Assembly: GCF_003334355.1 (NCBI RefSeq)
Contig: NZ_QOWP01000008.1
Strand: one strand, 5' to 3'
Source of the DNA: Escherichia coli
GTDB taxonomy: Bacteria; Pseudomonadota; Gammaproteobacteria; Enterobacterales; Enterobacteriaceae
DNA: 64,000 nucleotides
The translations under genes were made by a program, and so were the position numbers. Under the pieces are notes generated by a model that saw only the letters and a list, made by a program, of their open reading frames with translations, was not told the DNA's origin and made no database searches. Positions 3,079 to 22,291 of this stretch are shown one piece after another. Positions within the stretch are counted from its first letter, which is position 1. Every line of letters begins with the position of its first letter.

Positions 3079-11060
<7,982 letters not shown>

Positions 11061-11097: not shown

Positions 11098-11136
11098 TTC
11101 TCCAACGGTTAATTACAAATAGATAAAGTATCCCGC

Positions 11137-11610
11137 TTAACTTAAAGAGTCTGTTTCAGGACATGAAATATCCAATCCGGGCAGACGGGTAATGATTTTG
11201 CTCATCACCACACCTGCCAGCAATGCAGGAATGATGCGGACAACGAGACTGTCACCAGAAAGAATGTTTTCAAACAACTCCGAGGAAGCCATGCCCTTAA
11301 TATGTACAATAACTGCACAATAGATCTCGGTGATAACGACGCCACCTATGCCACCAGCCAGACAACGATAATTTTTCTGTGACCCGATCTTTTCCGGCAG
11401 ACAGGCGACCATCACGCCGGTTAACAATGCAGGAATAGCTCCCGTAGTAATCGACAATAAGAGAAACAATGGAAGTACCTGTATTATTACCAAAAGAACC
11501 AGCGGTTCTTTTGCGAAGAATATGTAGAGGACAAGAAACAGAACACCAATTAACGGTCCTAAAACCGCAAAATAAAGTCCGTGATGTATTACCCGACGTG
11601 AAACAGACAT
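11137..11610 (-). CDS. cbrB: Inner membrane protein CbrB (YieI)
   Basis: 157-aa strongly hydrophobic ORF immediately downstream of yieH on the same strand. Confidence 0.8.
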   Translation of the reverse strand: MSVSRRVIHHGLYFAVLGPLIGVLFLVLYIFFAKEPLVLLVIIQVLPLFLLLSITTGAIPALLTGVMVACLPEKIGSQKNYRCLAGGIGGVVITEIYCAVIVHIKGMASSELFENILSGDSLVVRIIPALLAGVVMSKIITRLPGLDISCPETDSLS

Positions 11611-17635: not shown

Positions 17636-18883
17636 TCAGCCAAATTTAGGTAACACGTTAAAGACGTTACCGAACCAGCATAAAATTACGGTTATACCAA
17701 AGAGAATGACAATCGCCGGAATAAGATTGCCGCCCCAGACCGTGAACATCTGATTGGGAAACTTCTTGCGAGCTTTGATTGCAAGCACTGCGGGAATAAT
17801 GACCGCCCAGATGGTGGCGCACAGCCCGGCACCGCCGATCCCGTAAATAAAGCCGTTCGGGAAGATCAGATACAACAACGCAGGTGGCAGGAAGGTTAAC
17901 AGCACGGTTTTGAAACGCCCGCCGTGGGAGTTATCAATCTTAAACAGGTCCGCCAGATAATCGAACAACCCCAGCGTGACACCAAAGAACGAACTGGCAA
18001 CAGCTAAGTTAGAGAACACCAGCAGGCAAAACTCGATAATGCCGTGCTGTTTGGTGCCGAGGAACGATTTCACCAGCGAATCAACGTTGCCGCCTGAGGA
18101 GATTATCGCCTTAAAGCTTTCGCGCGGAATATTCCCCATCGTGCAATAGAGCCAGAAGAGATAAATCACCAGCGCCAGCAGCGAACCAAATACCACGCTT
18201 TTGATTAACTTATCTTTGCGTTTTCCATAGCAAATAATCAGGCTGGGAATATTGCCGTGGAAACCAAATGACGCCAGACACACCGGCAAAGCCATAAAAA
18301 TATACGGGAAGTAAGACGTTCCCGCAGTGGTGCTGGTGGCATCGCGCAGGATGGAGTAATCGACCTGGAAGAAGAAAGAACCAAACACGATCACAAAGGA
18401 GATAATCTTCAGCCCGAGGAACAATGAGGTAATGCGACTGGCGGCTAACGAACTTATCCACAATACGCTGGCAACGAAAATGGCTGTGCAGATCCCGACA
18501 ATACGTGGATTAGCGTGATAGCCCAAATTCATTGATATCGTTTCACTAATGATCGCACCATTAGCAGAGATATAGGCATAAGTGAGGATATAGAGAACGA
18601 AGGCAACGGTAATACCGCTGATAATGTTCCAGGTGTTACCGATTAAATCTTTGGTGATGGTGTTAAAACTGGAGCCGACAGGATAATTTAAATTTGCTTC
18701 TAATAACAATAACCCGGAATGAAGCATTGAAAACCAGGCAATGATAAGGATAAAGGCACCCCAGAAAAACCAGGCACCGGCAAGATCAACAGGTAAAGCA
18801 AACATACCTCCACCAATTACTGTACCTGCTATAACCATAACACCCCAAAATGCAGAGTGCTTTTTTTCAGCTTGATCAGTCAT
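17636..18883 (-). CDS. tnaB: Low-affinity tryptophan permease TnaB
   Basis: 415-aa membrane protein downstream of tnaA. Confidence 0.95.
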   Translation of the reverse strand: MTDQAEKKHSAFWGVMVIAGTVIGGGMFALPVDLAGAWFFWGAFILIIAWFSMLHSGLLLLEANLNYPVGSSFNTITKDLIGNTWNIISGITVAFVLYILTYAYISANGAIISETISMNLGYHANPRIVGICTAIFVASVLWISSLAASRITSLFLGLKIISFVIVFGSFFFQVDYSILRDATSTTAGTSYFPYIFMALPVCLASFGFHGNIPSLIICYGKRKDKLIKSVVFGSLLALVIYLFWLYCTMGNIPRESFKAIISSGGNVDSLVKSFLGTKQHGIIEFCLLVFSNLAVASSFFGVTLGLFDYLADLFKIDNSHGGRFKTVLLTFLPPALLYLIFPNGFIYGIGGAGLCATIWAVIIPAVLAIKARKKFPNQMFTVWGGNLIPAIVILFGITVILCWFGNVFNVLPKFG

Positions 18884-18973: not shown

Positions 18974-20389
18974 TTAAACTTCTTTCAGTTTTGCGGTGAA
19001 GTGACGCAATACTTTTGGTTCGTAGGTAAAGGTTAATCCTTTAATATTCGCCGCGTTCTCTTTCACATGTTTAAAGGCTTCAATAATGAAGTCCATATGT
19101 GTTTGAGTATATGTTGCGCGCGGAATGGTTAAACGCAGCAGTTCAGCCGGGCATGGCAGTTGTTTACCGGTTTTCGGATCGCGGCCTAACAGGAAAGAGC
19201 CAATTTCTACCGCACGGATACCGGCGACTTTATACAGCTCGCACGCCAGCGCCTGTGCCGGGAACTGGTCTGCCGGGATATGCGGCAGCAGTTTACCGGC
19301 ATCAACGAATGCCGCGTGACCGCCCGCCTGCTGGCAGACAACGCCAATCTCTTCCAGACCATCGACCAGATACTGTACCTGCGCGATACGATAAGCCAGC
19401 CAGTCGAGATTCATGCCGTCATACAGACCTACCGCCAGACGCTCCATCGCGCCGCCTTCCAGGCCGCCATATGTCGGGAAGCCTTCCTGCACCACGCAAA
19501 GGGTTCTGCACTCGGTGTACACATCAAAGAAGCTGTCGTCTTTCATGCACAGCAAGCCGCCCATCGGCACCATCGCATCTTTCTTGGCGGACATCGCCAG
19601 CATATCGGCATATTTGTAGGTTTCGCGGGTGATCTGCTCGATGGTCCAGTCTTTGTATTCTGCTTCACGCTGCTTGATGAAATAGGCGTTTTCAGCAAAG
19701 CGTGCGGAGTCCATTACCACCGGAATATCGTATTTCTTCGCGATGCTGTACATCGCTTTTAAGTTTGCCAGTGAAACCGGCTGACCACCTGCAGAGTTAC
19801 TGGTGATGGTTGCAACGATATACGGCACGTTATTCGGGCCAACTTCTTCAATACCGCGTTCTAATCCTTCGAGGTCAAAGTTGCCTTTAAAGTCGTAACG
19901 CACGCCCGTATCGAAGGCTTCTTTGATATAGACGTTACGCACGGTACAGCCGTTAATCTGGCTATGGCCCTGCGTGGTATCAAAGAAATAGTTAGAGAAT
20001 GCCACCATTTTGCTGCGATCCAGGCCTTTTTCCTGCTCGCGTTTTTTAATCAGTACCGGAATATAGATTTGCTCTGCGCCACGGCCCTGGTGAGTCGGAA
20101 TAGTGTATTGATAACCAAAGATATTTTTCACTGACTCGGCTAACGCATAGTAGCTGCGGCTGCCGCTGTAGGCTTCGTCGCCGCGCATCATCGCGGCCTG
20201 CATACTCTGCGTCACCGCCCCGGTGCCGCTGTCGGTCAGTAAATCGATAAACACATCTTCGCTATCCAGCAGGAACGGGTTCATACCGGATTTAATAATT
20301 GCTTCTTCACGATAAGCGCGAGTAGTACGTTTTACTGGCTCAATAACACGAATGCGGAACGGTTCAGGGAGATGTTTAAAGTTTTCCAT
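18974..20389 (-). CDS. tnaA: Tryptophanase TnaA (PLP-dependent)
   Basis: 471 aa from [18 protein letters not shown]; the track ORF starts 5 codons upstream. Confidence 0.97.
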
Positions 20390-20609
20390 TACATAATCCT
20401 TCATTTATTTTAATTACAGTGATCCCTGTGAATATTACATCTGCAATATCCATTAATTCGCCATGTATATATACAAGCACCATCATTTACTAAAATAAGT
20501 AAATAAACGAGAGATGGCCTTTGCAAAAGGCAAAATTAAGATATAGCAAACTAATCGTTCACATTGAATCTAATCGGTTTGGCTCTGGTGATGGCTACAG
20601 AAGGGTAAA

Positions 20610-20684
20610 TTAAGGGCGGTGATCGACAATCTTATTGTCGATATTGAACCATTTTGAGGTCACACATATATGTAAGATATTCAT
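20610..20684 (-). CDS. tnaC: tna operon leader peptide TnaC (24 aa), not in the ORF track
   Basis: Minus-strand translation gives MNILHICVTSKWFNIDNKIVDHRP followed by a stop; about 220-nt spacer (Rho-dependent termination region) before tnaA. Confidence 0.93.
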   Translation of the reverse strand: MNILHICVTSKWFNIDNKIVDHRP

Positions 20685-20758
20685 AATGCACTTATCCTCG
20701 AAAGACACGAGGCTACAGTATAATACTCAAGAATTTTGTCTATTCTAAAATTGTTTAA

Positions 20759-20774
20759 ATGTGAATCGAATCAC
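20759..20774. promoter_or_regulatory. CRP binding site of the tna promoter
   Basis: tgtgaatcgaatcaca, a perfect TGTGA-N6-TCACA, about 75 bp upstream of tnaC. Confidence 0.8.
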
Positions 20775-20926
20775 AATCGTTCGGGGAGCAATATTAAATG
20801 CTTTTTTTTAAGATTATAAATTACGTAAGAATTTTAATGTTTAAAAAAAGGGTTGAGGAATAATAGGAGTGCTAACAATGAAGCGAAGCCGCATCTGACA
20901 GTCAGAATACGGCTTCGTAAGCGCGG

Positions 20927-22291
20927 TTACTTACCAATACAGAAGCTGGAGAAAATCCGCCCCAGCAGGTCGTCTGAAGTAAATTCCCCGGTGATTTCGC
21001 TTAAGTTCTGCTGTGCCAGACGCAACTCTTCCGCCAGCAGTTCACCTGCCCAGGCTCCCAACAGTTGCGCTTTGCCCTGTTGTAGATGTTCCGCTGCCTG
21101 TTCCAGCGCCTGTAGGTGGCGACGACGCGCCAGGAAGCCGCCTTCCATGTTGGTGTCAAAGCCCATGCTCTGTTTGAGATGGTTACGCAGCACCTCCACG
21201 CCTTCACCTGTCCTTGCCGAGAGACGAATTAACGCGTGACCGTTCACTTCACTCATTCCCAGCGTTTCGCCGGTGATATCGGCTTTATTGCGCACCACGG
21301 TGATCGGCAGTTTCGCTGGCAGACGGGCGATAAATTCCGGCCAGATCTCTGCCGGATCCACGGCGTCTGTTGTGGTGCCATCGACCATAAACAGCACGCG
21401 GTCGGCCTGTTCAATTTCCTGCCACGCGCGCTCGATACCAATACGTTCCACTTCGTCACTGGCTTCACGTAGCCCAGCGGTATCGATGATATGCAGCGGC
21501 ATTCCGTCAATGTGGATATGCTCACGCAGCACGTCACGTGTGGTTCCGGCGATATCAGTTACGATTGCTGCTTCACGGCCCGCCAGCGCGTTTAACAGGC
21601 TCGATTTACCGGCGTTAGGACGTCCGGCAATCACCACCTTCATCCCTTCGCGCAACAAACTACCCTGACGTGCTTCAGCACGCACTGCATCGAGATCGGC
21701 AATCACGTCATTAAGCTGGGCTTCAATTTTGCCGTCGGAGAGGAAATCGATCTCTTCATCAGGGAAATCAATTGCCGCTTCGACGTAAATGCGCAAGTGG
21801 GTGAGGGCTTCTACCAGATGATTAACCCGTGCGGAGAATGCGCCTTGCAGCGAGTTAAGTGCCGAACGGGCCGCCTGTTCCGAACTGGCGTCGATAAGAT
21901 CGGCAATCGCCTCGGCCTGGGCTAAGTCAAGTTTATCGTTAAGAAACGCGCGTTCGGAAAACTCACCAGGGCGAGCAATCCGCAGGCCGGGAATGGTCAG
22001 AATGCGTTTTAACAGCAGGTCGAGGATCACCGGACCGCCATGACCTTGCAGTTCCAGCACATCTTCGCCGGTGAACGAGTTCGGGCCAGGGAACCATAGC
22101 GCAATCCCCTGATCGAGCACGCTGCCGTCGGCGTCTTTAAACGGAAGATAATCGGCGTAGCGCGGCTTAGGCAGTTTACCCAGCACGGTTTCGGCAACTT
22201 CACGGGCTTTGAAGCCGGAGATGCGCAGGATGCCAACGCCGCCACGTCCCGGAGGCGTGGCCTGGGCTACGATAGTGTCATTATCGCTCAT
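20927..22291 (-). CDS. mnmE: tRNA modification GTPase MnmE (TrmE)
   Basis: 454 aa; G-domain motifs [10 protein letters not shown] and DTAG; C-terminal CIGK. Confidence 0.96.

Follow-up and report, generated by a model that had tools for sequence, protein, structure and literature searches.

What does the DNA between mnmE and tnaA encode in this Escherichia coli, and would it control the tryptophanase genes in the way known from strain K-12? An earlier note on the window (the whole stretch of 64,000 nucleotides analysed here) had placed a tna regulatory module at this site, made up of a perfect CRP site, a 24-codon tnaC leader with Trp12, and a spacer of about 220 nt before tnaA, and had judged that its attenuation should be functional.

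Identity of the locus

There is very little doubt in our minds that the control region at 20390-20775 is the leader through which the tnaCAB (tryptophanase, indole-producing) operon of Escherichia coli is regulated, and nothing in the sequence speaks against this reading. This is a textbook system, annotated in RefSeq and structurally characterised, and as such it is already known and ordinary. All tna features in the window are on the minus strand, and the coding parts are as follows.

tnaC Shine-Dalgarno: 20695-20699, minus strand, GAGGA, 10 nt before the ATG, read from the sequence
tnaC: 20610-20684, minus strand, 24 codons plus a TAA stop, encoding MNILHICVTSKWFNIDNKIVDHRP, with W12, D16, I19 and P24
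tnaA: 18974-20389, minus strand, tryptophanase of 471 aa (TIGR02617, 1010 bits versus 825.8)
tnaB: 17636-18883, minus strand, low-affinity tryptophan permease of 415 aa (NF007235, 926.7 bits versus 497)

A segment of 481 bp (20860-20380) finds matches in 5406 of the 5426 complete E. coli genomes, 1659 of them at 99% identity or more, and several of the sampled E. coli genomes carry it at 100% identity. The RefSeq labels beneath this match read 'tnaC: tryptophanase leader peptide' and 'tnaA'. The tnaC annotated in strain E2865 falls exactly on 20684-20610 and its tnaA on 20389 onwards, and the annotation of the same strain gives the gene order rpmH-rnpA-yidD-yidC-mnmE-tnaC-tnaA-tnaB-mdtL. In the window, tnaA and tnaB follow the leader directly and in its own orientation. 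On identical DNA, RefSeq lists tnaC as WP_001364348.1. An Rfam search of 20200-21000 at E<=1 returned zero matches, the tna leader having no curated RNA family of its own.

Both structural genes are intact. TnaA shows zero amino-acid differences from its K-12 counterpart, and TnaB is of full length (aligned over 1-415 of 415) with two conservative substitutions. Transfer from identical RefSeq DNA and HMM alignment both put the tnaA ATG at 20389, with the Shine-Dalgarno sequence GAAGGA at 20402-20397. Mechanical ORF calls over-extend both tnaA and tnaC. For tnaA, the longest-ORF call begins at an ATG at 20404, five codons upstream, and yields 476 aa.

For tnaC, it had been claimed that the gene is invisible to the ORF track. 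That is so at the default 60-aa cut-off, but not at a minimum of 20 aa, where an ORF of 32 aa (20610..20708) is called. This call begins at an in-frame GTG (20708) that is not the real start, the annotated start being 20684.

The TnaC leader peptide

Translation of the minus strand over 20684-20607 gives MNILHICVTSKWFNIDNKIVDHRP, a stop and then F, with neither a frameshift nor an internal stop within the 24 codons, so that the 24-codon reading with Trp12 and a DHRP-stop ending stands as first described (20684-20610). The ATG is at 20684-20682, the Trp12 codon TGG at 20651-20649, the Pro24 codon CCT at 20615-20613, and TAA at 20612-20610. The peptide scores 44.3 bits against the NCBIfam model TIGR02616 (tnaC_leader, an equivalog model with a curated cut-off of 23.55), with residues 3-24 aligned to model positions 1-22 of 22. 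It also matches the TnaC chains of two stalled-ribosome structures in the PDB (6i0y_7 and 4uy8_7), and is identical to chain 7 of 6i0y over residues 1-24. The residues reported as critical for TnaC (W12, D16, I19 and P24; PMC10941005) are all found in MNILHICVTSKWFNIDNKIVDHRP at the right spacing. The stop directly follows Pro24 (CCT TAA, 20615-20610), which is the position of a termination-type arrest.

These results bear on the opposite reading, namely that we are looking at a fortuitous short ORF near a palindrome, or at a relic leader before inactive genes. It is true that 24-codon ORFs are common in general, with 109 ORFs of at least 20 aa listed within 8 kb. Nevertheless, chance or decay would have to account for a peptide that is the same as the characterised TnaC and passes both the HMM and the PDB comparisons, for the synteny mnmE-tnaC-tnaA-tnaB-mdtL, for two intact downstream genes, and for functional elements that are invariant while the surrounding DNA has diverged from K-12 at a neutral rate. 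Peptide identity, synteny, intact tnaA and tnaB, and invariant elements refute it, and we give it practically no weight. The tna module of the earlier note is supported by 100% DNA identity to chromosomes annotated with tnaC and tnaA, by the TIGR02616 score and by the PDB match.

Upstream of the start codon, a short hairpin of 5 bp in the 5'-UTR has GAGGA as its 3' arm (CCUCG...CGAGG, -7.1 kcal/mol). As a special structure over the Shine-Dalgarno sequence this hairpin was discarded, as it folds no better than shuffled sequences (z = -0.44).

A natural variant of the peptide is found in E. coli NCTC86, where tnaC carries R23H (…DHHP, CGC to CAC) and the boxA core CGCCCT is altered as well. Residue 23 of TnaC is known to tune tryptophan sensitivity (R23F, PMC8429421).

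CRP site and promoter

Two elements upstream of tnaC belong to transcription initiation.

CRP-type palindrome: 20760-20775, strandless, TGTGATTCGATTCACA (TGTGA-N6-TCACA), perfect core
Core promoter, sigma-70-like: 20720-20749, minus strand, TTTAGA, 18-nt spacer, TATTAT, found by promoter scan as a consensus match only

The perfect palindrome reported earlier is present, but its coordinates (20759-20774) were one base low. The motif TGTGANNNNNNTCACA occurs once in the 64-kb window, where 0.06 occurrences are expected by chance, and is present in 6 of 100 shuffles. K-12 and the 12 further Escherichia leader sequences examined all carry it unchanged. From the centre of the site to the tnaC ATG downstream is 83.5 bp, exactly the K-12 distance. 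In class I CRP activation the site is centred at about -60. With a leader of 319 nt, as in K-12, the centre of the window's site would be near -60. CRP-cAMP binding to the tna promoter, and the promoter's dependence on it, have been published for K-12 and EPEC (PMC5748587, PMC8429421).

The core promoter has the CRP site on one side and the tnaC Shine-Dalgarno sequence on the other. It differs from K-12 at 8 of 30 positions; over 20718-20747 the window reads GAGTATTATACTGTAGCC and K-12 GAGTGTAATAATGTAGCC. The window's promoter haplotype is common to E. albertii, Nissle 1917 and O157-like strains, K-12 being the minority type.

Further upstream (about 20777-20860), the similarity of some genomes to the window ends a few bases above the CRP core (ATATCTAATTGTGA versus CCGAACGATTGTGA; loci L014, L015 and L005). 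This break is found in O157-like and some other genomes and corresponds to the matches whose coverage is 82-83%. The upstream half of the mnmE-tnaC intergenic region thus exists in alternative forms.

Just past the mnmE stop, at 20885-20916 on the minus strand, there is an imperfect inverted repeat of 15-16 bp (GAAGCCGTATTCTGAC / GTCAGATGCGGCTTC) without a T-run. One of its stem positions is polymorphic, being U-G in the window and C-G in K-12. The repeat may be REP-like or may form a hairpin at the 3' end of mnmE.

Comparison with K-12

The closest reference is the tnaC-tnaA leader of K-12 MG1655 (b3707, NC_000913.3 3888435-3888509 plus flanks). The alignment of 561 nt, from the end of mnmE into tnaA, is gap-free, and all spacings are therefore those of the characterised system. 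Alignment with annotated tnaC, proposed earlier as a check, thus gives exact coincidence with the RefSeq gene at 20684-20610 and zero indels relative to K-12. Shared between the two are the 24-aa peptide, the CRP core, GAGGA, CGCCCT at codons 23-24, the spacer length of 220 nt, all but one of the first 51 nt of the spacer, and its final ~45 nt ahead of tnaA. All tna leader elements are present and intact in the window, with their identity and spacing read directly from the DNA.

The differences are the stop codon (TAA in the window, TGA in K-12), three synonymous changes at tnaC codons 15, 17 and 18, and 12 substitutions in the spacer, nearly all of which are mid-spacer. Overall the regulatory region diverges by 5.3-5.5%, versus 1.2-1.4% in the flanking genes. 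Four-fold degenerate sites, on the other hand, differ from K-12 by 5.3% in mnmE, 6.0% in tnaA and 3.6% in tnaB. The leader as a whole diverges from K-12 about as neutral sites do, and its functional elements are constant.

Selection or recombination was considered as the cause of the 5.4% leader divergence and rejected, because four-fold sites in the flanking genes diverge to a similar extent (3.6-6.0%).

The tnaC-tnaA spacer

The stretch from the end of tnaC to tnaA carries the elements that are thought to interact with Rho.

BoxA-like element: 20611-20618, minus strand, CGCCCTTA, sharing bases with tnaC codons 23-24 and with the stop
C-rich, G-poor tract: 20559-20620, minus strand, presumed rut (Rho utilisation) site, adjoining the stop codon
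tnaC-tnaA spacer: 20390-20609, minus strand, 220 nt, region of Rho-dependent termination (role taken from K-12 literature)
Spot 42-complementary tract: 20571-20584, minus strand, AGCCAAACCGATTA, 14 nt, complementary to the reported 15-nt Spot 42 tract

The spacer, first put at about 220 nt, measures exactly 220 nt (20390-20609). No intrinsic terminator (hairpin plus T-run) was predicted by the scan of this interval, and Rho dependence itself is presumed. A search for boxA and rut features, likewise suggested earlier, finds the boxA-like CGCCCTTA at 20618-20611 and a C-rich tract peaking at 20620-20581, where 40 nt hold 16 C and 5 G. From the lambda boxA consensus CGCTCTTA, CGCCCTTA differs by one mismatch and the K-12 sequence CGCCCTTG by two. 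Konan and Yanofsky reportedly described, in 2000, a boxA-like CGCCCT overlapping tnaC codons 23-24. The C-rich tract by the tnaC stop is mostly unpaired in the minimum free energy (MFE) fold, and the first 51 spacer nucleotides are invariant across 11 haplotypes except at nt 4. Published work (PMC10941005) likewise puts the rut site right next to the stop of tnaC.

At the distal edge of the rut tract sits AGCCAAACCGATTA, invariant in the 11 haplotypes, for which a duplex with Spot 42 of -18.6 kcal/mol is predicted. Pairing between a segment of Spot 42 and the tnaC-tnaA spacer has been reported for EPEC (PMC5748587), and the tract used here was derived from the mut4 primer of that study.

Could the spacer hold an additional layer of RNA structure? 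In the predicted fold, an imperfect hairpin comprises spacer nt 40-189, and CCUUC (20604-20600), just after the tnaC stop, pairs with the GAAGG of the tnaA Shine-Dalgarno sequence. Such a structure would couple the position of the ribosome on tnaC to the translation of tnaA. The fold has an energy of -50.2 kcal/mol (z = -2.62), a value reached by 4 of 200 shuffles, and 11 haplotypes preserve its consensus, showing one compensatory change of a pair from GC to AU and several changes compatible with G-U pairing. However, the covariation measures are not above those of shuffled controls (143/500 and 49/500), all compared sequences are E. coli and 97% alike, and the 5-bp long-range helix never varies and is thus uninformative. 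Moreover, 12 of the 30 variable columns fall in paired positions, which is no significant depletion against the ~15.5 expected, and the sequence is AT-rich. Among the 11 haplotypes, polymorphisms are concentrated mid-spacer. We consider such an additional layer of structure, with its coupling role, unlikely.

The stop codon as a common polymorphism

A functional nuance relative to K-12 lies in the codon at which arrest would take place.

tnaC stop: 20610-20612, minus strand, TAA, where the ribosome arrests holding Pro24-tRNA in its P site (role from the literature)

A census of the tnaC stop in 5426 complete E. coli genomes, made with allele-specific 47-mers that are unable to seed across the diagnostic bases, counted 1790 genomes with TAA (1754 + 36) and 3606 with TGA (3605 + 1), that is 33% and 67% of those typed. 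TGA is the stop in K-12, Nissle and O157-like strains and also in E. albertii, which makes TAA the probable derived state. One complete genome has seven places matching the TAA-allele 47-mer (the median being one), which may mean that the tna leader is locally amplified there or that the assembly is at fault.

Both RF1 and RF2 recognise UAA. The earlier note's 'functional' attenuation needs a qualifier, as RF1 also reads the window's stop. Nearly all the mechanistic and structural literature on TnaC deals with arrest at UGA, which is read by RF2, and reports that RF1 releases TnaC efficiently (PMC8450073). TnaC arrest is described as RF2 > RF1 (PMC12407103), and its preferential inhibition of RF2 is cited elsewhere as well (PMC10314930). 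In a full-text literature search on tnaC and UAA, none of the papers searched described a natural UAA allele.

The window may hold the same module with a quantitatively different attenuator. RF1, which TnaC and Trp inhibit only poorly, would compete with RF2 at UAA, so that stalling would be weaker or demand more tryptophan than in UGA strains such as K-12, and the induction of tnaA and the output of indole along with it; termination at UAA is also more efficient and would lower basal read-through. We entertain this only tentatively, with our belief falling somewhat short of even. In its support stand the TAA confirmed in the window, the preference of TnaC for inhibiting RF2, and an engineered UAA stop that Konan and Yanofsky (1999) are said to have found to roughly halve both basal and induced expression, with induction retained. 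This last result would fit a leader that is functional with a different amplitude. Against it, TAA in 1790 of 5426 genomes is clearly compatible with a maintained operon, the remainder of the module is constrained as in UGA strains, and RF2 reads UAA too and is more active in non-K-12 strains.

The UAA leader would be expected to keep its inducibility, possibly with a different amplitude; its response may differ in size, not in kind. Put more broadly, about one third of E. coli lineages, the window's among them, end tnaC at UAA, which brings the overlapping boxA nearer to its consensus and, with the same reserve as for the altered attenuator, would open the arrest site to a poorly inhibited RF1.

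Proposed mechanism and related systems

In the published mechanism, CRP activates transcription, tryptophan makes the ribosome stall at the tnaC stop, and the stalled ribosome masks rut from Rho (PMC8429421, PMC8450073, PMC10941005, PMC12360218). Carried over from this work on K-12, attenuation at the window's tna leader would proceed as follows. Transcription would start downstream of the CRP site, placing the operon under catabolite repression, and after initiation the 24 codons of tnaC would be translated. When tryptophan is low, a release factor would free TnaC at the stop codon and the ribosome would depart; Rho could then load on the exposed boxA and C-rich rut tract by the stop and terminate transcription within the 220-nt spacer. 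When tryptophan is high, free L-Trp would bind alongside nascent TnaC (W12, D16, I19, P24) in the exit tunnel and block the hydrolysis of TnaC-tRNAPro. The stalled ribosome would cover the rut site, and RNA polymerase would read on into tnaA and tnaB.

Two other known systems help to place this leader. The tnaC of Proteus vulgaris is likewise a tryptophan-sensing leader before tnaA; it has the conserved Trp, Asp and Pro residues and attenuates through Rho, but carries two extra codons past the critical Pro, leading to elongation arrest, whereas in the window, as in E. coli, the stop directly follows Pro24 (PMC3082878). The SpeFL/speF leader is also a short uORF in which the nascent peptide and a small metabolite block a release factor at the stop, with the stalled ribosome shielding rut from Rho, as proposed for tnaC (PMC8429421, PMC12360218). 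It differs in its ligand (ornithine), its unrelated peptide and the inhibited factor, which is RF1 (PMC8429421).

The wider locus and other genomes

Outside the operon, the window is colinear with strain E2865 over 1271-39580 at 98.5-99% identity, apart from a cbrC gap and IS621. At 11100-11121 the window is without ~633 bp of E2865 that contain cbrC (colicin E2 tolerance), the gap being flanked by yieK (10344-11060, plus strand) and a 157-aa ORF (11137-11610, minus strand). At ~31461, E2865 has a ~1.3-kb insertion of IS621 (IS110-like) between yidB and gyrB, which the window does not carry.

A scan of genome contigs for the C-terminal coding pattern of TnaC returned three loci only (E. albertii, one E. 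coli and a 'Collinsella' metagenome-assembled genome, MAG), too few for reconstructing history, with the E. albertii locus cut inside the spacer. The third of these (L005, JAIJJM010000386.1, 'Collinsella sp.' MAG) is a contig of 3.1 kb whose E. coli tna leader has the same sequence as the window's, and is almost certainly a binning contaminant.

Significance

The tna leader of the window serves mainly as a control, being a regulatory ORF of 24 codons that is lost to a 60-aa ORF filter and yet recognisable by reading the sequence. Its use as a positive control for the reading of short ORFs, put forward in the earlier note, is valid. The only new point is a descriptive one, namely that a UAA/UGA polymorphism is common in E. 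coli at the exact site of release-factor inhibition.

The module governs the production of indole, which is an inter-bacterial and host-directed signal. If UAA shifts the tryptophan threshold or the amplitude of tnaA induction, there would be heritable differences in indole output between E. coli lineages, and K-12 would stand only for the majority allele.
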